Positions 5,495-39,814 of a stretch of DNA of 64,000 nt are shown piece by piece. Within the stretch, counting starts at the first letter, position 1; the number at the start of each line of letters is the position of its first letter. The position numbers and the translations under genes are program-made. The notes under the pieces were generated by a model that saw only the letters and a program-made list of their open reading frames with translations, was not told where the DNA came from and made no database searches. This stretch comes from an uncultured Chloroflexia bacterium (GTDB taxonomy: Bacteria; Chloroflexota; Limnocylindria; QHBO01): assembly GCA_963783725.1 (NCBI GenBank), contig CAWAOJ010000002.1:340469-404468 (forward strand), written 5' to 3'.

Positions 5495-8239
5495 ATGCAT
5501 CCAGCCATGCAACGGCGCCGCCATCGTCTGATGCTGCGGCGCACGACCAGGCGGCGCGCTCCGCGGCGGGGCCTGGCGACGTTCCTGCTCGGGCTCTTCG
5601 CCGCCATCGGCATCATGATCGGCGGGTCGCTGGTCGGCACCGCGGGCGGCATGCTGGCGGCCTACAACTACTTCGCCAGCGGCCTGCCCGATGCCCGAAT
5701 CCTCGACGACATCCAGCTTCCGCAGTCGACCTACGTCTACGACAGGACGGGGAAGGTGCTGCTGGCGCGGTTCGAATGCCAGAACCGCGAATCGGTCTCG
5801 TTCGCCGGCATCCCATCGGTCCTCGTCAACGCGACCGTCGCCAGCGAGGACCGCACCTTCTGGACGAACAACGGCGTGGACGTGCAGGCCGTCGGCCGAG
5901 CGGTCTTCGCCAACCTGAAGGCCGGGACCATCGTCCAGGGCGCCTCGACCATCACCCAGCAGGTGATCAAGTACGCCGGGTCGATCAAGGAGGCCGAGAA
6001 GAAGGCCGCGCCCGCAAGCGCGGCCGCGCGCCCCTCGGCCGAGCTCGACCCGAACGCGGCCGCGACCAACGAGAACGACGCCGACGTGTGCACGCCGCCA
6101 TCGCTCACCTTCCTGGAGGGGCGCACCTTCCAGGACAAGATTCGTGAGCAGATCATGGCCACCAAGGTCACGGAGGCCTATCCGGGGCGTGCCGGCAAGC
6201 AGAAGATCCTCGAGACCTACCTGAACCTGATCAACTACGGCAACGGCTCGTACGGGATCAAGGCGGCGGCGGCGAACTACTTCGGCGTCAGCAACCTGGC
6301 CGACCTGACGCTGGCGCAGGCGGCATTCCTGGCCGGCCTGCCACAGGCGCCCGGTGCGTACGACCCGTACCTCAACAACCACGGCCCGGCCAAGGCGATC
6401 GAGCGGCGCAACCAGGTCCTGGGCCGGATGCTCGACGACAAGTACATCACCCAGGCACAGCACGACGCCGCGGTCAAGGTCACCTGGGAGGAGATGGGCC
6501 CGAGCCGCATCTCGACGCCGCTCCGCGAGCCGCAGTTCAGCTTCCGCGTCCGCAAGGAGGCCGAGTCGATCCTCGCCTCGCTCGGCTACAAGCACCCGGA
6601 GCAGGCGGTCCGCACCGGCGGGTTCCGAATCGTCACCACAATCGACATGGGCCTCGAGAAGGTCGCTCACCAGCAGGTCAGCAAGTGGGTCAAGGCGCTC
6701 GGCGACAAGAACGTCCACAACGGCGCGCTGGTCTCGATCAACTCGGCGAACGGCGAGATCGTGGCCTATGTCGGCAGCGTCGACTACTACAACCGCGACG
6801 ACCCTCGCGTTGACGGCCAATTTGACGTCGCGGGGCTCGGGCGGCGGCAGCCCGGATCCGCGTTCAAGCCGATCACCTACAGCTCGGCGTTCGTGGCGCG
6901 CAAGGCGACGCCGGCGACCTTCTTCGTGGACGCCGTGACGCAGTTCGGAGCCGATCCCAAGACCGCCTACGTGCCGACCAACGCCGATGTCAAGGAGCAC
7001 GGACCTCTGCTCGCCACGGACGCGCTGCGCTACTCGCTGAACGTGCCGTCGGTGAAGATGCAGTACGTCGTCGGCCCGCAGACGACGGCGAAGTTCGCCG
7101 AGACGATGGGCGTCGCCAGCGCCTCGTACATCAACGACCTGCAGCCGAGCCTGACGCTGACCCTCGGATCGGTCCCGGTGAACCTGACCAACATGACGCA
7201 GGCCTACGGCGTCTTCGCCCAGCAGGGCGCGCTGCACGTGGCCACCACGGTGCGCGAGATCCGCGACCGGAACAACCGGATCGTCTACGCCCCCAAGACC
7301 AACGGCCCGCAGGTGACGCACCCCATGACGCCGGGCGAGTCGTATCTCATGCACTGGATCCTGCAGGGCAACACCGATCCCAAGACCAACGTGCTGTGGG
7401 GCTCGCGCGCCGAGCTCTTCGCCCCGAACGGGCAGCGACGCGAGGCGGGCTTCAAGACCGGCACCACCAACGACTTCCGCGACGTGTCCGGCTTCGGCTA
7501 CGTGCCGGGCAGCCTGGTCACCGGCGTCTGGATGGGGAACAACAACCAGGCGCCCATGTCCACGGTCCTCGGGCAGGGACTCTTCTCCGCCGACGGCCCG
7601 CTATACCTGTGGCATGACTTCATGGAGCTCGCCCTCAACAAGCCGTGGGACTGGAACGGCAAGAAGCCCGTCCCGGCCACCGGCATCAGCCGCCCGGGCG
7701 ACGTAGTGATGAAGACGGTCTGCAAGTTCAGCGGCATGCTCGCCACGCGAAGCTGCGGCGAGACGCGCGACATGCCGTTCCTGAAGGGCACGGAGCCGAA
7801 GCCCGACAACGTCCATTCCAAGGGCTGCTTCGACATCGTCCAGGAGGAACGGCAGAACGACCGGCCGAAGGAGTGGATCGAGGCCGCCCAGCGCTGGGCC
7901 AATCGCCAGGTGAACGGCGAGTACGCCGCGAAAGGCGACGCGAGCAAGATCAGCGAGAACATCACCGGGGTCCGGCTGGCCATCGCGCCGCTGCTGGGCA
8001 ACACCAGCTTCGGCGGCCCGATCTGCGGGCAACGTCGCGCGCCGACGCCCGCGCCCTCGACGCCGAAGCCGGAGCGCACCCCGGGGCCCGCGCCGTCGGC
8101 CACGCCGAGCGTCGGTCCGCTGCCGTCGTGCCGGGGCAACAAGTGCCCGTCAGCGTCGCCCACGCCGAACCCGGCCGGCCTGCCCGCCCTGGCCGCGGTC
8201 GCCATCGCGGCGGCCCTGGCTCGGCGGCGGCGACGCTGA
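5495..8239 (+). CDS. Class A penicillin-binding protein (GT51 transglycosylase + transpeptidase) with about 200-aa Cys-containing, Pro-rich C-terminal extension
   Basis: GT51 motifs EDRTFWTNNGVD and QGASTITQQ; transpeptidase region with SAFKP. The C-terminal extension ends ...NPAGLPALAAVAIAAALARRRRR. Confidence 0.9.
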   Translation: MHPAMQRRRHRLMLRRTTRRRAPRRGLATFLLGLFAAIGIMIGGSLVGTAGGMLAAYNYFASGLPDARILDDIQLPQSTYVYDRTGKVLLARFECQNRESVSFAGIPSVLVNATVASEDRTFWTNNGVDVQAVGRAVFANLKAGTIVQGASTITQQVIKYAGSIKEAEKKAAPASAAARPSAELDPNAAATNENDADVCTPPSLTFLEGRTFQDKIREQIMATKVTEAYPGRAGKQKILETYLNLINYGNGSYGIKAAAANYFGVSNLADLTLAQAAFLAGLPQAPGAYDPYLNNHGPAKAIERRNQVLGRMLDDKYITQAQHDAAVKVTWEEMGPSRISTPLREPQFSFRVRKEAESILASLGYKHPEQAVRTGGFRIVTTIDMGLEKVAHQQVSKWVKALGDKNVHNGALVSINSANGEIVAYVGSVDYYNRDDPRVDGQFDVAGLGRRQPGSAFKPITYSSAFVARKATPATFFVDAVTQFGADPKTAYVPTNADVKEHGPLLATDALRYSLNVPSVKMQYVVGPQTTAKFAETMGVASASYINDLQPSLTLTLGSVPVNLTNMTQAYGVFAQQGALHVATTVREIRDRNNRIVYAPKTNGPQVTHPMTPGESYLMHWILQGNTDPKTNVLWGSRAELFAPNGQRREAGFKTGTTNDFRDVSGFGYVPGSLVTGVWMGNNNQAPMSTVLGQGLFSADGPLYLWHDFMELALNKPWDWNGKKPVPATGISRPGDVVMKTVCKFSGMLATRSCGETRDMPFLKGTEPKPDNVHSKGCFDIVQEERQNDRPKEWIEAAQRWANRQVNGEYAAKGDASKISENITGVRLAIAPLLGNTSFGGPICGQRRAPTPAPSTPKPERTPGPAPSATPSVGPLPSCRGNKCPSASPTPNPAGLPALAAVAIAAALARRRRR

Positions 8240-29355: not shown

Positions 29356-29432
29356 GGTGGCCTTAGCTCAATAGGCAGAGCATCGGATTGTGGCTCCGAA
29401 GGTTAGGGGTTCGAGACCCCTAGGCCACCCCA
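29356..29432 (+). tRNA. tRNA-His (anticodon GTG) with genomically encoded G-1 and CCA
   Basis: Cloverleaf folded by hand. Acceptor GTGGCCT/AGGCCAC; D-arm GCTC-AATAGGCA-GAGC; anticodon stem TCGGA/TCCGA; loop TTGTGGC (GTG at 29390-29392); T-arm AGGGG-TTCGAGA-CCCCT. The extra 5' G pairs with discriminator C73 and is followed by CCA. Confidence 0.9.
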
Positions 29433-29441
29433 GGTTCCTCT

Positions 29442-31520
29442 TCAGTTCGCGTGCGGTCCACGCAGGTGATACGGCACGTCGACGACGACCGTATTCGGCC
29501 GGAAGAAGAGCCGAAGCTTCAGGCGCAGCGCCGTCTGGTTGTGGAGCGGATACTCCCAAAAGTGCCGGGGCACGTATTCGGAGAGGACGACCGTCGTGCG
29601 TTGTGCAGGGTCGAGCGCCTCGGAGGCATCGAGGTAGGCAAGCAAGGGCGCCATCAGGGCCCGGTACGGGGACTCGAGGATGACAAGTCGCACGGGCCCG
29701 CCCCACGCTTCCCAGCGCTCCTTCATCGCGGCCAATTCTGCGCGGTCGTCGGATACGTGGACGGCGGTGACATTCGGAGAGAGCGAGCGGGCATACGCCA
29801 GCGCCTCGAGGGTCGGACGATCCATGCGGCTGATCGGCACGATGGCGCGCGTCCGGGGGCTCGGCAGAACGCCGGGCGGCCAGGCCGCCTCGAGTTCGCG
29901 TTCCAGGCTGTGATAGTGCCGGCCGATGGCCCACATCACACCAATGAGCGCAGGGATGAGCAGCAGGATCATCCACGCTCCGAGAGCGAACTTGGCGATC
30001 CCCACGATGATCGCGACGAGTGCGGTGGCGATCGCGCCAGCGCCGTTCAGCGCCGCACGCCAGCGCCAGCCGGCCTGCTCTTGCCGCAATCTCCACCAGT
30101 GGCGCACCATGCCCGACTGGCTCAGGGTGAATGCGACGAACACGCCCACCGTGTACAGCGGAATGAGGTTCGTGACGGAGCCCTGAAACGCCACGATCAG
30201 GGCACCCGCCAGGAGAGCGAGAGCCATGATCCCGACGGTGAAGGAGAGGCGGTCGCCGCGGAACTGGAACTGGCGTGGCATGAAGCGGTCTTTACCGAGG
30301 ATGCTCGCCAGGCGCGGGAAGTCGGCAAAGGCGGTGTTGGCGGCCAGTACCAGGAGCAGCGCTGTTGAGACCTGAACGAGGTAATGGAACGGCGTGTCCC
30401 GCCCGACCAGGGTGCGGGTGATCTGGCTGATGACCGTCTCCTGTTCGGTCGGGTCGGGGATTACGCCGAGTTGCGCCGCGAGGAAGCTGATGCCGATGAA
30501 AATTGTGGCGAAGAAGGTGCCCATCATGATCAGCACCGCGCCGGCGTTGCGCGATTCAGGCGGCTTGAATGCCGGCACGCCATTGGCGACGGCCTCTGTG
30601 CCGGTCAGGGCGACGGAACCCGAGGCGAAGGCGCGCAGCACCAGGAGGACGCTCAAACCCTCCACGCCGCCCTGTGCCAGCCAGGCCGGGGGTGCGCTGT
30701 AGTGCGGTAGCGTCCCGGTCGCGAAGCGGAACAGCCCGAACCCCAGCAGGCCATAGATCGCCACGAGGTACACGTACGTCGGGATCGCGAAAATGTTGGC
30801 GCTGTCCCGGATCCCGCGCAGGTTGCCGAGCCACAGCAGTCCGACGAAGCCCACTCCCAGGAACACCCTGACATCAAAGAGGCTCGGGAAGATGGACGTC
30901 AGGGCCGCCACGCCGGCAGCGATCGAAACGGCGACGGTCAGGACGTAGTCCGTCAGGAGCGCCGCCGCTGCGACCAACCCAGGCAGGCGACCCAGGTTAT
31001 CGCTGGCCACGATGTAGGACCCGCCGCCCGAGGGATAGGCTCGGATCGTCTGCTGATAGCTCGTGACGACGATCGCCAGAACCACCACGATGGCCGTCGT
31101 CAGCGGCATCGTCAGGGCGAGTGCCCCCGCGCCGGCGGCAACGACGACCCGCATGATCTCCTCGGTGGCATAGGCCGATGACGAGATGTTGTCCGAGGCG
31201 AAAACGGCCAGGCCCTTGATCGGACCGATGCGTTCGTGCATCTCGTGCTCGGTGGCGATCCGCCGGCCGACGAGAACCCGACGCGCTGCGTCCCACCCTC
31301 GACCGAAGGGGCTGCCGCGCCGGAGCACTTGCTCGGAAGCGACGAGGTGCCCGGGAGCCTGTCGTCGGAACTCCCTGGCGAAGGGCTCGACCACCGAGAC
31401 GTAGCGGTCGCCGACCCGGCTGCCCCGTTTGCCTCGCAGCTCCCGCAGGTCTGCGGGCGACGGTGCCTGGCCGTCTCCTCTCATCGATCGCTCATGCGAT
31501 CGACTCCACGACGACGTCAT
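29442..31520 (-). CDS. kimA: KimA-family (APC superfamily) K+ transporter with C-terminal cytoplasmic domain
   Basis: LAVFASDNISSSAYATEEI, AYPSGGGSYIV, LTDYVLTVAVSIAAG, SGSVALTGTEAVANGVPAFKPPESRNA and LVLAANTAFADFPRLASIL closely parallel B. subtilis KimA/YdaO. 12 TM helices plus about 180 aa C-terminal domain. The true start may be an internal Met. Confidence 0.8.
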   Translation of the reverse strand: MTSSWSRSHERSMRGDGQAPSPADLRELRGKRGSRVGDRYVSVVEPFAREFRRQAPGHLVASEQVLRRGSPFGRGWDAARRVLVGRRIATEHEMHERIGPIKGLAVFASDNISSSAYATEEIMRVVVAAGAGALALTMPLTTAIVVVLAIVVTSYQQTIRAYPSGGGSYIVASDNLGRLPGLVAAAALLTDYVLTVAVSIAAGVAALTSIFPSLFDVRVFLGVGFVGLLWLGNLRGIRDSANIFAIPTYVYLVAIYGLLGFGLFRFATGTLPHYSAPPAWLAQGGVEGLSVLLVLRAFASGSVALTGTEAVANGVPAFKPPESRNAGAVLIMMGTFFATIFIGISFLAAQLGVIPDPTEQETVISQITRTLVGRDTPFHYLVQVSTALLLVLAANTAFADFPRLASILGKDRFMPRQFQFRGDRLSFTVGIMALALLAGALIVAFQGSVTNLIPLYTVGVFVAFTLSQSGMVRHWWRLRQEQAGWRWRAALNGAGAIATALVAIIVGIAKFALGAWMILLLIPALIGVMWAIGRHYHSLERELEAAWPPGVLPSPRTRAIVPISRMDRPTLEALAYARSLSPNVTAVHVSDDRAELAAMKERWEAWGGPVRLVILESPYRALMAPLLAYLDASEALDPAQRTTVVLSEYVPRHFWEYPLHNQTALRLKLRLFFRPNTVVVDVPYHLRGPHAN

Positions 31521-31746
31521 AGCCGACCTGTGGCCCGTGCCACACCGTCCGGACGATCACTCCGGCGTCGTGACCAGCAGCCCGGGCGTTGCTCGCGACA
31601 GCCTCGGCGTTGCGGAGGCATATATGTGTGACCCGGAGGGCGGCCCCCTCCGCGACGACCGCGATCGACGCGCGCACCAGGTCCAGCTCGCGCTCGGCCG
31701 AGCTGTCAGCCTCGGTCGCGACGGGACGCTGCGCTATTGGTTCCAT
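31492..31746 (-). CDS. Hypothetical 84-aa ORF between kdpE-like and kimA-like genes
   Basis: An ORF only; no motif recognised. Confidence 0.3.
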   Translation of the reverse strand: MEPIAQRPVATEADSSAERELDLVRASIAVVAEGAALRVTHICLRNAEAVASNARAAGHDAGVIVRTVWHGPQVGYDVVVESIA

Positions 31747-31814
31747 GCCTCCAGCGTGGCGCGGACCCCCAAGAGAGGCGGCGCATGCGACGCGCGCCGC
31801 CGCTCAAGAAGTGC

Positions 31815-32528
31815 TCAAGACCACTCGGGATCAGGCGGCTCGTGGATCCGGTAGCCAACGCCCGGCTCGGCGGTGATGAGCTTCGCCGTCGCGCCGCTCG
31901 GATCGGCCGCCGCGAGCTTGTGGCGGAGAGAGGCCACGTGGACGTGCAGGTAGTGCGTCTCCTCGGCGTAGGCCTCCCCCCACACCGCGCGCAGCAGTCG
32001 GCCGCGCGTGACCACCCGCCCGACGTGGCTGAGCAACACCTTGAGCAATTCGTACTCATGCGGGGTGAGGTGGACCAGCGTGCCGGCAACCCTGGTTTCG
32101 CGGCGCACGGGGTCGAGCGTGACGGGGCCAACGGTGATCGAGCCTTCCACGTCAGCAGCCGGGTTGAGGCTTCGGCGAAGGGCCGCGCGTACTCGGGCGC
32201 CAAGCTCGGCCATCCCGATTGGCTTGGCGAGGTAATCGTCGGCTCCCCGGTCGAGCGCCTCGACCTTGTCTCGCTCCTGGTCATGCGCGGAGAGGACGAT
32301 GATCGGGGTCAGTGCCTCGCGGCGCATTCGGCGGATCACTGCCAGGCCGTCGATCCCCGGCAGACCGAGATCGAGCAGGACGACGTCCGGTCGCTGCGCC
32401 TCCCACTGCCTGAGCGCCTCCTCACCGCTCGGCGCGACGCGTACGACATAACCGTGACCTCGGAGGTTGGCAGCGACGAGGCGGCTCGTCGCTTCTTCGT
32501 CTTCGACGAGCAAGATGCTGGCACTCAC
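31815..32528 (-). CDS. kdpE: OmpR-family response regulator, KdpE-like
   Basis: Receiver domain (DEEATSRL..DLGLPGIDG..LSAHD) plus winged-helix trans_reg_C (TPHEYELLKVL...GYRI). Start overlaps the kinase stop. Confidence 0.85.
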   Translation of the reverse strand: MSASILLVEDEEATSRLVAANLRGHGYVVRVAPSGEEALRQWEAQRPDVVLLDLGLPGIDGLAVIRRMRREALTPIIVLSAHDQERDKVEALDRGADDYLAKPIGMAELGARVRAALRRSLNPAADVEGSITVGPVTLDPVRRETRVAGTLVHLTPHEYELLKVLLSHVGRVVTRGRLLRAVWGEAYAEETHYLHVHVASLRHKLAAADPSGATAKLITAEPGVGYRIHEPPDPEWS

Positions 32529-34114
32529 GTTGCTGCCGTTTCCTCCTTCTGCTCTTGCTCCGCGCCGCCGTCCGCGGGATTCCGCCGTCTTGCTGGCAGG
32601 CCGACCACGATTGCCAGTCCTCCGAGCGGACTCCGTTCGGCGTGAACCCGTCCGCCCATCGCCTCGACGAGTCCGCGAACGACCGCCAGACCCAATCCCG
32701 TGCCGCGCCGCGCAGCGCTCACCCCGGGCTCCCGATGAAACTTCTGGAAGAGTCGCTCATACCCCCCGGCGATTCCCGGCCCGGCGTCTTCTACTATCAG
32801 CGCCACGTACGAGTCCGCTTCGACGAGGCGCCCGCTGATGTGGACCGCGGCGGGCGTCGGAGCGTAACGCGATGCGTTCTCCAGGAGGTTGGTCAGCACC
32901 TGGTCGAGCATCATCGGGTCGGCCCAGACCGGGGGGAGAGCGACGGGCAGATCAATCTTGAGCGGGTGGTCGACGAGCAGGTCAGAGAGCCTCTCGACGA
33001 CCGCCTCGATGATAGGAGACAGCGGCACAAGCTCGAGGTCGGCACGAAGAGCGCCGCTGTCGATCCGGCTCATGTCGAGGAGGTTGGTCACCAGCCGATT
33101 GAGGCGCGCCGCCTCCGCATCGATCGTGGTTCCCAGGGCTATCCGTTCAGCATCAGGGATCACCAGATCCGGGTCAGCCAAGTTGCCCGCGGCGGCTCGG
33201 ATGGTGGACAGCGGCGTGCGCAGGTCGTGAGACACCGAGTCGAGGAGCGCGCTCTTCAAGCGATCACTGCGCCGCGCGACCTCGCCCTCGGCGGCGACCG
33301 CAGCGAGCTGCTGCCGGCGAACGGCCTGTGCGATCTGGTCGGCCGCTGCGGCGAGCAGGCGTGCGTCCTGGGGCCCTGACTCGGCGCGGCCGGCGGAAGC
33401 GAGCGCCCACAGCGATCCGAACAACTCGTCTCCAACCGCCAGCTTGACGCGATACAGCGCCTGTGATTCCGTTTCGCCGCGCTGCGGCGGGTGGATCCGG
33501 CGCCAGACAGCGGGACCGTCGGCATCGTTGCGGCGCAGGAGGCGGTAGGAGCGGAGACTCGGTGTCGGCTGATCGGGATCCGTGTCGGCCAATGGACGTT
33601 CCGGCGCGCCGTGAACCGCCACGCCGATCCAGATGCGCTGCATTCCGGTGTCGTGCGCCAAACGCTCGACGACCTGAGAGGCGGCGACGCCGACCCGGTC
33701 CGAGGTGTTGAGCGCACGGCTGACCGAGTACAGGGCTCGTGCCTCGCTTTCGCGCCGCTGCGCGTCGCGCTCCTGGTCCCGCTGGCGCCCGGCGAGTCGT
33801 GCGATAAGCACACCGACGATGAGAAACAGGACCAGATTGAGGAGCTGTTCAGGGTCCGCGACGGTGAAGGTATAGCGCGGATCGATAAAGAGGAAATTGT
33901 AGGTCAGGAAGGCGCCGGCGGCGGTGATGATGGCCGGCGTGCCTCCGGAGCGAATGGCGACCGCGGCGATGCCGAGCAGGTACACGGCCGACGCGTTGGA
34001 CAACCCGAGCAGGCCTTCCAGCACGTAGCTCGCTGCCGTACAGGCCGCAAGCGCGGCGGTGATTTCGCCGCTACGGCGTGCCAGGGTGCGCTCGATCGCG
34101 ACTCGCGGCGTCAC
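32525..34114 (-). CDS. kdpD: KdpD-like sensor histidine kinase lacking the N-terminal KdpD/Usp sensing module (DUF4118 TM + GAF + HisKA + HATPase only)
   Basis: Begins directly with the KdpD-type four-helix membrane region (…FLTYNFLFIDPRYTFTVADPEQLL…), then a GAF-like domain, HisKA (SHDLRTPL) and HATPase_c (GLGLAVVRGLVEAMGG). At 529 aa it is about 360 aa shorter than canonical KdpD. Confidence 0.85.
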   Translation of the reverse strand: MTPRVAIERTLARRSGEITAALAACTAASYVLEGLLGLSNASAVYLLGIAAVAIRSGGTPAIITAAGAFLTYNFLFIDPRYTFTVADPEQLLNLVLFLIVGVLIARLAGRQRDQERDAQRRESEARALYSVSRALNTSDRVGVAASQVVERLAHDTGMQRIWIGVAVHGAPERPLADTDPDQPTPSLRSYRLLRRNDADGPAVWRRIHPPQRGETESQALYRVKLAVGDELFGSLWALASAGRAESGPQDARLLAAAADQIAQAVRRQQLAAVAAEGEVARRSDRLKSALLDSVSHDLRTPLSTIRAAAGNLADPDLVIPDAERIALGTTIDAEAARLNRLVTNLLDMSRIDSGALRADLELVPLSPIIEAVVERLSDLLVDHPLKIDLPVALPPVWADPMMLDQVLTNLLENASRYAPTPAAVHISGRLVEADSYVALIVEDAGPGIAGGYERLFQKFHREPGVSAARRGTGLGLAVVRGLVEAMGGRVHAERSPLGGLAIVVGLPARRRNPADGGAEQEQKEETAAT

Positions 34115-34192
34115 AACATGATCCTACGTCGCATGCGCCGCCCGGCCGGATCTCGACTCCTGGCGCGCGCGAGCCGGCGCCGTCGATAGCCC

Positions 34193-34657
34193 TTACCCGG
34201 GCCGATTCCCGCGAGTGGGCAGCTCGGCGGATTGTGCCGAGGCGTCGCCTTGAGCCGGCCGCGGCGTGCCCAGGTACTCGGCCTCGCTCACCTGGTCGCC
34301 CCACTCCGTCTCCGGGCCGTCGGCCGGCGACTCCCAGATCGCCAGGTGGGTCATGAACCGATTCGGGGCGGCACCGTGCCAGTGCCACTCGCCGGGTGCG
34401 ATCTGCACCGTGTCGCCGGCGCGAATCTCGACGGCCTCCTCGCCTCGAGACTGGACCCGACCGACGCCCTCGGTGACGTGCAGCGTCTGCCCCATGGCGT
34501 GCGCGTGCCAGGCATTCCGTGCGCCCGGCGCGAACCGCACGACCGCGACGCGGACGCGAGAAGGCTCCTCGCCGCGGACGATGAAATCGAGCCACGCGTC
34601 ACCGGTGAAGGTAGCCGCATCGGCCTTGCTTGTGGGGTGCGGATCCACTCGTCTCAT
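34193..34657 (-). CDS. Cupin-domain protein
   Basis: Two-His-one-Glu beta-barrel pattern NAWHAHAMGQTLHVTEGVG...APGEWHWHGA. Confidence 0.75.
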   Translation of the reverse strand: MRRVDPHPTSKADAATFTGDAWLDFIVRGEEPSRVRVAVVRFAPGARNAWHAHAMGQTLHVTEGVGRVQSRGEEAVEIRAGDTVQIAPGEWHWHGAAPNRFMTHLAIWESPADGPETEWGDQVSEAEYLGTPRPAQGDASAQSAELPTRGNRPG

Positions 34658-36307: not shown

Positions 36308-36868
36308 CTACGCCGGTGCGTACCCCAGGTAGATCGCGCCCGAGCGGAAGCGCCTCGTCTCCGTCTGCCTGAGCCGAAGTGCGCCGTCGAGCGCGGGGAA
36401 GAATGGCGTTCCCGCGCCGAGGACCACCGGGTGCACCACGAGGCCGTAGGCGTCGACGAGGCCGCGCCGGATGAACTGAGCGGCCAGCGTCGGGCCGCCG
36501 AGGTCGAGGTCGCCATCGAACTCGGCTCGCAGTCGTGCCAGCTCCTCGCCGACGTCGCCGTTCACCAGTCGGCTGTTCCATGCGACGCTCTTCAGCGAAG
36601 ATGAGAAGACGACCTTCGGCTTGGGGTTCCAGACGCGGGCGAACTCGAGCATGTACTCGGTCGCCGATGGGTCCGCCTCCGCGGTCGGCCAGTACGCCGC
36701 CATGGTCTCGTACAGCCGTCGGCCGTAGATGAACGCGTCGGCCTCGCGCGAGCGCTCGGTCCACCACGTGTGCAGCTCCTCGTCGATAGTCGTCCAGTCC
36801 AGCGAGTGGTCGAGCGTCTCGACGTATCCGTCGAGCGAGACGTTCATGGAGTAGACGAGCCTGCCCAT
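36308..36868 (-). CDS. Dihydrofolate reductase-like (RibD C-terminal domain) protein
   Basis: MGRLVYSMNVSLDGY...VVHPVVLGAGTPFF, the YyaP/RibD_C pattern. Confidence 0.75.
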   Translation of the reverse strand: MGRLVYSMNVSLDGYVETLDHSLDWTTIDEELHTWWTERSREADAFIYGRRLYETMAAYWPTAEADPSATEYMLEFARVWNPKPKVVFSSSLKSVAWNSRLVNGDVGEELARLRAEFDGDLDLGGPTLAAQFIRRGLVDAYGLVVHPVVLGAGTPFFPALDGALRLRQTETRRFRSGAIYLGYAPA

Positions 36869-37021
36869 TCGGAACCTCGAACTGCGTGGTTTCATGAGGA
36901 TGACCGCTGCCGCGACGAAGACTCATCGCTCCGCCTGAGAATCGCCCGACGCGGGGGCGCCATCCGGCAGCAGCCTATAATCGCGCCGCCGTCTGGTCGA
37001 CGCAGCCGCTGGAGACTCCGA

Positions 37022-39814
37022 ATGGCGACCCTTCCGCAGGGAACGGTCACGTTTCTGTTCACCGATATCGAGGGCTCGACCAGGCTCGTCCAGGCCTTCG
37101 GTGACCGATACGCGGAGCTGCTCGAAACGCACCAGCAGCTGCTCCGCGCGTCCTTCGCTGGCGGCGTCGAGATCTCGACCGAGGGCGACTCCTTCTTCGT
37201 CGCATTCGGCAGCGCGACGGCGGCGGTCGAGGCGGCCGTGGCGGCGCAACGAGCGGTCGCCGGCCACCAGTGGCCGGCTGGCGCATCGGTCCGGGTGCGC
37301 ATGGGGCTGCACACCGGCCAGCCGAGCCTGGGCGGAGACAACTACGTCGGGTTCGACGTCCACCGCGCAGCACGCATCGCCGCTGCCGGGCGCGGGGGAC
37401 AGGTGCTGCTATCCGAATCGACGCACGGGTTGGTGAGGCGCGACCTGCCGGAGGGCGTCACGGAGCGAGACCTGGGCGAGCATCGGCTCAAGGACCTCTC
37501 GCTGCCCGAACACCTCTTCCAGCTCGTGATCCCGGGCCTTCCGGCAGATTTCCCGCCGCTGCGAGCGCTCGATCCCGCGCGCACGAACCTTCCTCCGCAG
37601 CTCACCAGCTTCATCGGACGCGAGCGCGACCTGGCCGCCCTTCGCGAGCTGTGCCTCACCCATCGGCTCGTCACCGTCATCGGCACCGGAGGCACCGGCA
37701 AGACCCGACTGATGCTGCACGCGGCCGCCGAGCTCAACGACGAGTACACGGACGGCGTGTGGCTGGTGGAGCTTGCGCCGATCGGCGATGCGGCGCTCGT
37801 CCCCCAGGCGGTGTCACGTGCGCTGGGGGCGATCGACGAACCGGGACGCGACACGGTGGATGTGCTGGTGGACTTCCTGCGTGCCAAGTCGCTGCTGCTG
37901 CTGATCGACAACTGCGAGCACGTGATCGGGGAGGTGGCCGCACTCGTGCATCGGTTGGTCACGAGCTGCCCCGGACTCGTGGTCCTTGCCTCGAGCCGCG
38001 AAGCGTTGGCGGTGCCGGGCGAGAGCGTCTACCAGCTTGCCTCCCTCGGGATCCCCGCACGCATCGCGGACGTGCACGAAGATCAGGGTGCGACCTGGCT
38101 CGCGGAGGCCGCCGCCTCGGACGCGGTGCGTCTGTTCGTGGATCGAGCGACGGCGATCATGCCGACCTTTGCGCTCACGCCACCCGACGCGAGAGCGGTG
38201 GTCGAGGTCTGTCGCCGCCTCGACGGCATTCCGCTGGCCATCGAGCTCGCGGCGGCACGCGTGACGCTGCTCTCGGTGCAGGAGATCGCCTCACGGCTGG
38301 GCGATCGCTTCCGGTTGCTGACCGGCGGCCGGCGCACCGCCCTGCCACGACAACAGACCCTTGAGGCGCTCATCGACTGGAGCTGGCAGCTCCTCGACCA
38401 ACCCCAGCAACGCCTGTTGCGCCGCCTGTCCGTCTTCGCCGGAGGCTGGACGCTCGAGGCCGCCAGTGCCGTCACTCGCCTGCCCGACGAGCCGGACGCC
38501 GACGACGAGCTGGAGACGCTCGACATGCTCGGTCATCTCGTCGATCGATCGCTGGTGCTGGTCGACCGGGCGGCGCGGTCGAGATACCGCCTGCTCGAGA
38601 CGATCCGGGCGTTCGCCCGTGAACGCCTCGTGGAGGCGCAGGAAGTCACTGAAATCCACGGCACACATCTCGCCTTCTTCCTGCGACTCGCCGAGGAGGC
38701 GGAGCCCGACCTTCGCGGCCCCCAGATGGCACCGGCACTCGCGCGGCTCGATGCCGACGCCGACAACCTTCGGACCGCGCAGGAGTGGGCTTTCGAGGCC
38801 GATCCGGAGCGCGCGCTGCGCCTGTCGCTCGCCCTCTCGACGCTGTGGCGCTCGCGCGACATGGCGGAGGGGCAGCAATGGCTGAGCCGCGCCGCGGCGC
38901 TCGTAAAGTCGATGCCGGCGCCGGCACCGGAGGCGGCGAGGGAACGGGACATGCTCGTCGCGCGCGTGCTCGCGGCGGCCGCGACGGCGTCGTGGCTGAA
39001 CGGTTCGGGAGCGGTTGGGCTGCCCTGGGCGCGCGAGGCGGTGGAGGTCGCCCAGCGCACCGACGATGTCAGGGCGCGGTACGAGGCGCTCGGCTCACTG
39101 GTCATGTCGACGGTCTTTTCGGGGGGCGAGGCGGGGATCATGGAGCGAGCCAACGAGGTCGTTCGTCTCGCCGAGTCGGTCGGTGACTGGTGGACGATCG
39201 GCTTCACACGTGCCGGTCTGGCGCAGTGGGCGATCGAACGAGGCGACGTGGCGGAGGGCGAGGCCATGCTTGCGTCCGCCATGGCGGCCGCCGACCGCAC
39301 GCAGAACCCGACGGTGATCGCATTCGCGGCATTGGCGCACGCGAGGGTGAGCGGCTTCGCCGGCCGCCTTGCCGAGGCACGGGAGTGGTTCGAGCGGACG
39401 ATCGGCGCGTACCGATCGGTGGGCGATGCGGGACTCGCCCTGGTGGCGAGGAGCGACCTTGCCCACGTGCTGCGCCGCGCCGGTTCGATCGACGAGGCCG
39501 AGGCGATCTATCGCGAGACGCTCCACGAGTGGCTGCATGCCGGGAATCGGGGCGCCATCGCCAATCAGCTGGAGTCGTTCGCCTTCATCTTCGTGAAGCG
39601 GGGGGAGCTCGAGCGTGCGGCGCGGCTCTTCGGCGCCGCGGAGGCGATTCGCGAGGTCGCACAGTCGGTGATGCTGTACTCCGAGCGCGAGGAATACGAC
39701 CAGTCGGTCGGCGCCCTGCGGGCCACGCTCGACCGAACATCGCTCGACGCCGCGTGGGCGGAGGGGCGCCGGCTGTCGACCGATGAAGCCGCATCCCTCG
39801 CCATCTCACGCTAG
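37022..39814 (+). CDS. Class III adenylyl/guanylyl cyclase domain fused to STAND-type P-loop NTPase and C-terminal TPR array
   Basis: CHD motifs VTFLFTDIEGST...GDSFFVAF...GLHTG...VGFDVHRAARI; Walker A GTGGTGKTR; long TPR/helical C-terminus. There is no C-terminal LuxR HTH. Confidence 0.85.
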   Translation: MATLPQGTVTFLFTDIEGSTRLVQAFGDRYAELLETHQQLLRASFAGGVEISTEGDSFFVAFGSATAAVEAAVAAQRAVAGHQWPAGASVRVRMGLHTGQPSLGGDNYVGFDVHRAARIAAAGRGGQVLLSESTHGLVRRDLPEGVTERDLGEHRLKDLSLPEHLFQLVIPGLPADFPPLRALDPARTNLPPQLTSFIGRERDLAALRELCLTHRLVTVIGTGGTGKTRLMLHAAAELNDEYTDGVWLVELAPIGDAALVPQAVSRALGAIDEPGRDTVDVLVDFLRAKSLLLLIDNCEHVIGEVAALVHRLVTSCPGLVVLASSREALAVPGESVYQLASLGIPARIADVHEDQGATWLAEAAASDAVRLFVDRATAIMPTFALTPPDARAVVEVCRRLDGIPLAIELAAARVTLLSVQEIASRLGDRFRLLTGGRRTALPRQQTLEALIDWSWQLLDQPQQRLLRRLSVFAGGWTLEAASAVTRLPDEPDADDELETLDMLGHLVDRSLVLVDRAARSRYRLLETIRAFARERLVEAQEVTEIHGTHLAFFLRLAEEAEPDLRGPQMAPALARLDADADNLRTAQEWAFEADPERALRLSLALSTLWRSRDMAEGQQWLSRAAALVKSMPAPAPEAARERDMLVARVLAAAATASWLNGSGAVGLPWAREAVEVAQRTDDVRARYEALGSLVMSTVFSGGEAGIMERANEVVRLAESVGDWWTIGFTRAGLAQWAIERGDVAEGEAMLASAMAAADRTQNPTVIAFAALAHARVSGFAGRLAEAREWFERTIGAYRSVGDAGLALVARSDLAHVLRRAGSIDEAEAIYRETLHEWLHAGNRGAIANQLESFAFIFVKRGELERAARLFGAAEAIREVAQSVMLYSEREEYDQSVGALRATLDRTSLDAAWAEGRRLSTDEAASLAISR

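Follow-up and report, generated by a model that had tools for sequence, protein, structure and literature searches.

A 64,000-nucleotide stretch of contig CAWAOJ010000002.1 from an uncultured soil Chloroflexia bacterium (hereafter the window; G+C ~70%) carries a four-gene module that is conserved in Chloroflexota and probably serves potassium uptake. Four successive minus-strand open reading frames (ORFs), all at the coordinates that an initial annotation of the same DNA had assigned to them, span positions 29442-34114 and encode, in order, a short KdpD-like sensor histidine kinase, a KdpE-like response regulator, a small protein and a K+ importer of the KimA family. We give a probability of about 60% to the reading that these genes form one Chloroflexota K+-uptake module in which the regulator, acting under the kinase, switches on both the small ORF and kimA. 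The nearest relatives of the window are metagenome-assembled genomes (MAGs) of Chloroflexota (Limnocylindria and ‘Chloroflexia’ MAGs). The initial annotation had proposed that a pared-down two-component system of the Kdp type here takes the place of the ydaO riboswitch in the control of kimA. Gene order traced from two sides, a direct repeat in front of the small ORF and kimA, and a riboswitch search that found none all point in this direction.

The arrangement of the four genes was followed through related genomes by scanning one genome per species with a KimA alignment and keeping the 80 best loci, the ORFs of which were searched with the N-terminal and C-terminal halves of the window kinase, the regulator, the small ORF and KimA. 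A DUF4118 kinase and a regulator stood beside KimA at all 12 loci with a KimA at least 63% identical, at 5 of the 24 informative loci in the range of 50-62% KimA identity, and at 8 of the 25 informative loci below 50%. By phylum, the pair accompanied KimA at 23 of 62 Chloroflexota loci versus 2 of 18 loci from other phyla, and at nearly every one of the 12 loci with the most similar KimA it was located directly upstream of KimA on the same strand. The same order was recovered starting from the kinase: three out of three kinases (~50% identical, on long contigs) were followed by the regulator and then by one or two KimA-type permease genes, with an ORF of 82-83 amino acids (aa) between regulator and KimA at two of these three loci. 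The flanking genes of the three loci are unrelated, and a relative with an 82%-identical KimA has the same four genes between other neighbours. Because synteny holds from both the KimA and the kinase sides while the flanks differ, the block is a conserved module and not a chance neighbourhood.

Between the regulator and the small ORF we found a direct repeat, TTGAGC-ACTTC-TTGAGC, which is a candidate operator for the regulator. It begins one base before the regulator stop codon, with ~56 nucleotides (nt) separating its end from the small-ORF ATG, and TTGAGC-N5-TTGAGC has this single exact match in the window; when up to two mismatches are allowed, the number of repeats in the window equals that expected by chance, with the other two matches lying elsewhere. 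Among the related loci, the exact repeat was present in 15 listed loci, always on the KimA strand, where the gene that follows it is the small ORF, KimA or, once, the kinase. Allowing one mismatch gave 34 repeat sites in 1.1 Mb (both strands), 33 of them on the KimA strand and ~30 either at the start of a module gene or no more than 350 nt ahead of it. Among relatives, the repeat most often stands 56-57 nt from the start of the small ORF, and the gap from regulator stop to small-ORF start, which opens with the repeat, measures 66-69 nt in 10 of 11 loci. The repeat also precedes copies of KimA or the small ORF that have no regulator gene directly upstream (L004, L005, L012 and L078), and it is present at two loci with no kinase within 3 kb (L048 and L061). 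L048 comes from Ktedonobacteria bacterium brp13, and the repeat-like sites in front of its KimA have one mismatch each.

In an alignment of 17 upstream regions, the core columns of the repeat are invariant, and a second block with the consensus TCCCTCTTGG (CCTCTCTTGG in the window) stands at a fixed distance, its T and G columns nearly invariant; this block may be a promoter or leader element. A conserved ACGCTGG precedes the start codon in the same alignment. A GC-rich inverted repeat in the regulator/small-ORF gap (GGCGGCGCG...CGCGCCGCC, 31775-31806, minus strand; RNAfold of the 74-nt gap, -33.5 kcal/mol) was dropped as a feature since its sequence is not conserved among relatives, though most gaps fold stably.

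Rfam models applied to the window brought only one tRNA to threshold and no ydaO riboswitch (RF00379), and within 31300-34500 no ydaO-like element was found at E<=10, in agreement with what the initial annotation had reported for the region upstream of the transporter. Permissive matches over the leader were at chance level, to unrelated families only, and were discarded. No riboswitch for cyclic di-AMP (c-di-AMP) was found in the eight module-bearing loci scanned. One of the 19 scanned loci without a two-component system did carry it: at L050, a Vicinamibacteria (Acidobacteriota) MAG without an adjacent two-component system, a c-di-AMP (ydaO) riboswitch (7813-7974, plus strand; 52 bits versus a cutoff of 38) is situated directly upstream of KimA. 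Together, the riboswitch at this locus and the two-component module elsewhere indicate that alternative regulatory solutions for KimA coexist in nature. No KdpA or KdpB was found among the 10 scanned large coding-like ORFs of the window (292-1014 aa), which include all of at least 446 aa outside the module, and no kdp gene was noticed in the related module loci. The earlier description of the pair as placed upstream of KimA ‘instead of kdpFABC’ is thus right for the window, which has no gene of KdpA or KdpB size, and applies to the window only.

The kinase comprises three Pfam domains, DUF4118 (residues 19-121, 7.8e-28), HisKA (287-354, 3.8e-13) and HATPase_c (399-509, 1.4e-19), and the Pfam scan found neither the KdpD N-terminal domain (PF02702, Walker A/B) nor a Usp domain in it. 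The NCBIfam KdpD model (NF007793) aligns in one continuous stretch that covers positions 406-884 of 895 only and runs unbroken through the GAF-like region of the kinase. With an in-frame TAG four codons upstream of the GTG start and a cupin gene as the next gene upstream, the truncation is genuine and does not result from a miscalled start, so that a kinase beginning at DUF4118 without the KdpD N-terminal and Usp parts, as initially annotated, is upheld. The top PDB match is a DHp-CA chain of KdpD (6lgq_C, 2e-30), with which the H-box SHDLRTPL aligns, and hydropathy gives overlapping hydrophobic windows within about residues 20-111, which we read as four closely spaced segments, as in KdpD. 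The 120 best kinase homologues (49-100% identity), all of them 491-590 aa long, share these three domains and likewise lack the KdpD N-terminal and Usp parts. Hence the kinase has the DUF4118 four-helix membrane domain, the DHp domain with its phospho-accepting histidine and the CA domain of KdpD, and it departs from canonical KdpD in that the N-terminal and Usp domains are missing, the model score falls far short of the cutoff and no kdp genes are linked to it in the window. By its sequence, the kinase is homologous to the sensor-transmitter half of KdpD and is predicted to work like it.

What the truncation has taken away can be judged from E. coli, where the N-terminal domain of KdpD is an atypical serine kinase that phosphorylates KdpB at Ser162 (PMC11018627). 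Since KdpB, its known target, is not in the module, loss of the KdpD N-terminal module makes sense. The initial annotation had taken the missing part for the K+ sensor; this view has to be given up, as the K+-sensing sites suggested for E. coli lie within the transmembrane (TM)/GAF part of KdpD (PMC11018627), which is retained here with a GAF-like linker. On this comparison, the truncation appears to remove an output specific to the Kdp pump, and not the input.

The regulator starts within the end of the kinase gene (4-nt overlap) and consists of a Response_reg (REC) domain (6.3e-31) and a Trans_reg_C winged-helix domain (2.7e-21). KdpE is its top match in both NCBIfam and the PDB (E. coli KdpE, 4kny, 7e-49), which agrees with the initial call of a KdpE-type regulator that is co-oriented with the kinase and overlaps it. 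Three residues of KdpE, R193, R200 and T215, are required for DNA binding (PMC3264566); the regulator keeps R200 and T215 and has a histidine at R193, a replacement that fits a half-site sequence differing from the E. coli KdpE site.

The transporter is, as judged from all KimA sequence tests, an unambiguous KimA homologue. Its residues 78-687 align with residues 4-606 of B. subtilis KimA (PDB 6S3K, E 9.7e-139), C-terminal cytoplasmic domain included, and it matches AA_permease_2 in Pfam (1e-27), so that the first assignment of a KimA-like gene on the same strand, with a C-terminal cytoplasmic domain in its product, is confirmed. The K+-site and gating residues D36, Y43, D117, T121, S125, T230, E233 and Y377 are identical in the window KimA and seven relatives. 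Within the c-di-AMP pocket (residue list from PMC10284832), R337, P479, V506, H579, N580 and Q581 are kept and S582 is replaced by threonine, a replacement also reported in S. aureus KimA (PMC10284832).

The KimA of the window begins with a cytoplasmic extension of ~50 aa, containing the motif RPGDRYVxVVxPFAxEFRRxAPGHLVASE, which is conserved in the clade alignment, has no Pfam match and is not found in B. subtilis KimA. Chloroflexota KimA homologues align from about query residue 6-31 and those of Rokubacteria and Acidobacteria from about residue 80, i.e., without the extension, which therefore appears specific to this Chloroflexota clade. A public annotation of a 100%-identical KimA (P0001, 680 aa) uses the alternative start at 31484. 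Two to three KimA paralogues, adjacent or within ~2 kb, were seen at L006, L008, L010, L012, L017, L019, L036, L042, L047, L078, L085 and L087, and the second copy in L012 and L078 is preceded by its own TTGAGC repeat.

The 84-aa ORF, which the initial annotation mentioned as an exception between regulator and transporter, is no interruption but a real and conserved component of the module. Its ATG is preceded at 5 nt by a GGAGG. Only 7 nt separate its stop codon from the alternative kimA start, its overlap with the longest kimA ORF amounts to 29 nt, and in relatives it abuts kimA or overlaps it by a few bases. It shows the codon-position GC of a coding sequence, is listed among the genes of the source annotation (P0241) and has a pairwise dN/dS of 0.33-0.55. 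Homologues stand at this same place in no fewer than 13 distinct loci and, among the loci sampled, only where the two-component system is present. A word-indexed homologue search returned three matches only, and an exhaustive profile search found ~50 representative clusters of standalone proteins of 75-102 aa; one repetitive match of 2461 aa was set aside as spurious. No Pfam or NCBIfam match was found for the protein. An AlphaFold2 model of moderate confidence (predicted local distance difference test score 77.5) suggests a helix-strand-helix-strand-strand order, and a Foldseek comparison of this model with the PDB gave nothing significant; the best match was an R3H domain with an E of 0.18, and we assign neither a fold nor a function to the protein. 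At L014, the 355-nt gap between regulator and KimA (7628-7982) holds an ORF (MISLVNGAAAAHTISSLRAACEMLDAANGRVSAVSVSG...) that the hidden Markov model of the small protein missed and whose sequence, by eye, suggests the same order of helices and strands; the family may thus be wider than counted.

Table 1 Features of the potassium-uptake module (positions count from the first nucleotide of the window)
Feature	Position	Strand	Length	Basis and remarks
KdpD-like sensor histidine kinase	32525-34114	-	529 aa	Pfam, NCBIfam and PDB matches
OmpR/PhoB-family response regulator, nearest KdpE	31815-32528	-	237 aa	Pfam, NCBIfam and PDB matches
Candidate operator of the regulator, direct repeat TTGAGC-ACTTC-TTGAGC	31802-31818	-		Motif conservation and position
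Conserved non-coding block CCTCTCTTGG between repeat and small-ORF start	31769-31778	-		17-sequence alignment
ORF of the small soluble protein	31492-31746	-	84 aa	Conserved, coding-like
KimA-family (KUP) K+/H+ symporter	29442-31520	-	692 aa	6s3k match; annotated start may be 31484
kimA segment for the N-terminal cytoplasmic extension	31290-31484	-		Conserved in KimA alignment

Around the module, a cupin gene (34193-34657, minus strand) lies 78 nt upstream of the kinase and scores 163.6 bits versus a cutoff of 140 on the NCBIfam (R)-mandelonitrile lyase model; it is not conserved beside the module in relatives. On the other side, a tRNA-His (GTG) gene (29357-29432, plus strand) points towards kimA, with 10 nt between its end and the stop codon of kimA, and tRNA genes are also found near the module in L004, L005, L007, L016, L021 and L027. 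A 1014-aa protein encoded at 36770-39814 (plus strand), in which a STAND-type NTPase region comes after an adenylate/guanylate cyclase domain, has no relation to the module.

The exact 19-mer site TCTTGAGCGCTTCTTGAGC retrieved 54 metagenome contigs, ~15 of which are further regulator/small-ORF/KimA junctions, most with the 57-nt spacing; the low-GC contigs among the 54 look unrelated. On the high-GC contigs L094, L096, L103, L107, L111, L119 and L136, the 19-mer is located 14-76 nt upstream of genes outside the module, most of which encode predicted secreted proteins (TolB-like PD40 repeats, subtilisin-like protease), and the gene in L107 encodes a 1051-aa membrane protein. In L109 and L114 it adjoins KdpE-like regulator fragments, and L114 also has a segment judged by eye to be KdpA-like, with several reverse-strand GCTCAAGA units upstream. 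A different arrangement is seen at L092 (6083-6489), L113 (3014-3420) and L127 (2542-2948), contigs of 56-57% GC on which two inverted 19-mers, extended by TTCTTGAG units, stand 388 nt apart in a context without relation to KimA.

On our reading, the kinase would sense K+ status through the TM/GAF region that it has in common with KdpD and would phosphorylate the regulator, the catalytic motifs for this step being present. The phosphorylated regulator would then bind TTGAGC-N5-TTGAGC just past its own stop codon and activate a promoter for the small ORF and kimA. KimA, with its conserved K+ site, is predicted to import K+, and since the pocket residues are conserved it probably can still be inhibited by c-di-AMP at the protein level.

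Several observations weigh against this proposal. Many of the remoter Chloroflexota KimA loci have no two-component system, and on the NCBIfam KdpD model the kinase reaches 214.6 bits versus a curated cutoff of 1123. The GAF match (PF01590) in its linker, which spans profile positions 6-133 of 133, has an E of 0.0058 and 17.6 bits, below the cutoff of 22.4. The regulator, too, stays below its equivalog cutoff, scoring 186.8 bits on the KdpE model (NF007820; cutoff 325), barely ahead of MtrA and PhoB with 178. A scan for sigma-70 promoters and terminators recognised no promoter, the module strand showed no terminator, and the gaps along the block are tiny: a 4-nt overlap between kinase and regulator, 68 nt between regulator and small ORF, and 7 nt from the small ORF to the alternative kimA start. 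Finally, about a dozen high-GC contigs have the 19-mer 40-76 nt upstream of predicted secreted-protein genes or beside KdpE-like regulator fragments, so the site is not exclusive to kimA, and its presence elsewhere may reflect a larger regulon or paralogous regulators sharing the same site.

With kinase and regulator below their cutoffs and the GAF domain sub-threshold, K+ as the signal of the kinase is an extrapolation, and DUF4118 kinases are not all K+ sensors. The module could be real while its kinase responds to something other than K+ limitation, such as osmolarity or turgor, pH or another cation, with KimA tuned to a different stress. The low KdpD score and the barely detectable GAF domain would fit such a signal, as would the fact that the relatives of the kinase make up a large family of short kinases of their own. 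However, the best PDB and NCBIfam matches of the two partners are KdpD and KdpE, the adjoining gene encodes a K+ importer whose K+ site is intact, and the sites suggested for K+ sensing in E. coli fall in the part of KdpD that is retained, and we regard another signal as unlikely, though it is the most serious of the alternatives.

We think it improbable that the two-component system mainly serves another target elsewhere in the genome, for example kdpFABC together with a separate KdpD/Usp protein, and that kimA is only its neighbour or a secondary target. Split KdpDs, made of a KdpD/Usp protein and a TM/GAF/DHpCA kinase, are documented in kdp-bearing species, and L109, L114 and L126 share the 19-mer beside a KdpE-like regulator fragment (with the KdpA-like fragment seen by eye in L114), where a decayed or rearranged kdp-type locus may share the same site. 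Against this, kinase, regulator and KimA stay joined while their flanks change, the spacing between the candidate operator and the small ORF and kimA behind it is fixed, and kdp genes were neither found in the window nor noticed in the module loci. Equally improbable in our view is a single constitutive four-gene operon in which the repeat is the site of another factor or a transcript-level element and KimA is controlled mainly post-translationally by c-di-AMP: the tiny gaps, the lack of a sigma-70-like promoter, the conserved c-di-AMP pocket and the repeat motif in unrelated contexts would suit it, but the 11-bp periodicity and orientation specificity of the repeat are typical of OmpR-family sites, the repeat co-occurs with the two-component system, and it precedes KimA/small-ORF copies that have no preceding regulator gene (L004a, L005a, L012 and L078).

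The above analyses favor kinase-driven activation of the small ORF and kimA as the function of the module, and its wider meaning can be put forward as a tentative and rather doubtful extension. The module might be a self-contained, Kdp-independent K+ system in which the ~84-aa protein would be a new dedicated partner, either a regulatory subunit of KimA or a co-sensor of the kinase, and the TM/GAF part a portable K+ input that has been re-plugged onto a secondary transporter. The TTGAGC operator might then link further genes, e.g., secreted-protein genes, to a regulon of soil Chloroflexota that responds to K+.

KimA is known under c-di-AMP control, by riboswitch and by direct binding, and KdpDE has been described as a controller dedicated to the Kdp pump; the module appears to recombine both. 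It also offers a natural experiment on the recent proposal that the N-terminal domain of KdpD is there to phosphorylate KdpB while K+ is sensed in TM/GAF: with a predicted target other than Kdp, the kinase has lost the N-terminal domain and kept the TM/GAF-like part. For the abundant and poorly studied soil Chloroflexota (Limnocylindria and relatives), the predicted operator, the new small protein family and the N-terminal extension of KimA are testable items. Full-text literature searches gave no prior description of two-component control of kimA or of this module, and none was found in the literature on DUF4118 kinases and potassium or on Chloroflexi KdpE regulons.

In a comparison with the Kdp system of E. 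coli, the kinase corresponds by homology to the part of KdpD from the four TM segments to the C terminus and the regulator is nearest KdpE. The E. coli pair controls an inducible K+ uptake system, and the predicted target here is likewise a K+ importer. The E. coli KdpE site consists of two 6-bp direct repeats, TTTATA and TTTACA, 5 bp apart, the first two bases of which are invariant T (PMC3264566); the candidate operator has the same 6-5-6 layout with half-sites that begin with TT. Unlike KdpD of E. coli, the kinase lacks both the Walker A/B serine kinase domain at the N terminus and the Usp domain, and the predicted target is a KimA/KUP secondary transporter in place of a P-type ATPase. The gene order is kinase, regulator and target here and target, kinase and regulator in E. 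coli, the half-site is TTGAGC instead of TTTATA/TTTACA, and KdpE R193 corresponds to a histidine.

In split KdpDs, one of the two halves is a kinase made of TM, GAF and DHpCA parts only (Silberberg et al. 2024, PMC11018627), and the kinase of the module resembles such halves in having TM and DHpCA parts and a GAF-like region without the N-terminal module. The split KdpDs differ in that they were catalogued in kdpFABC-bearing species and are assumed to regulate kdpFABC, whereas the kinase here is tied to kimA by its position and by the candidate operator and has no KdpD/Usp partner in the window. The cyanobacterial Hik20/Rre19 pair is a further example of a split KdpD.

The closest counterpart of the transporter is KimA (YdaO) of B. 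subtilis, the gene of which is controlled by the c-di-AMP riboswitch; the two are orthologous in type, with the same K+-site residues, the C-terminal domain and the same c-di-AMP pocket save for S582 to T. Its setting differs from that of the B. subtilis gene, as an upstream two-component system, a candidate operator and a co-encoded small protein are found here and no riboswitch, and KimA itself has an additional conserved N-terminal extension.

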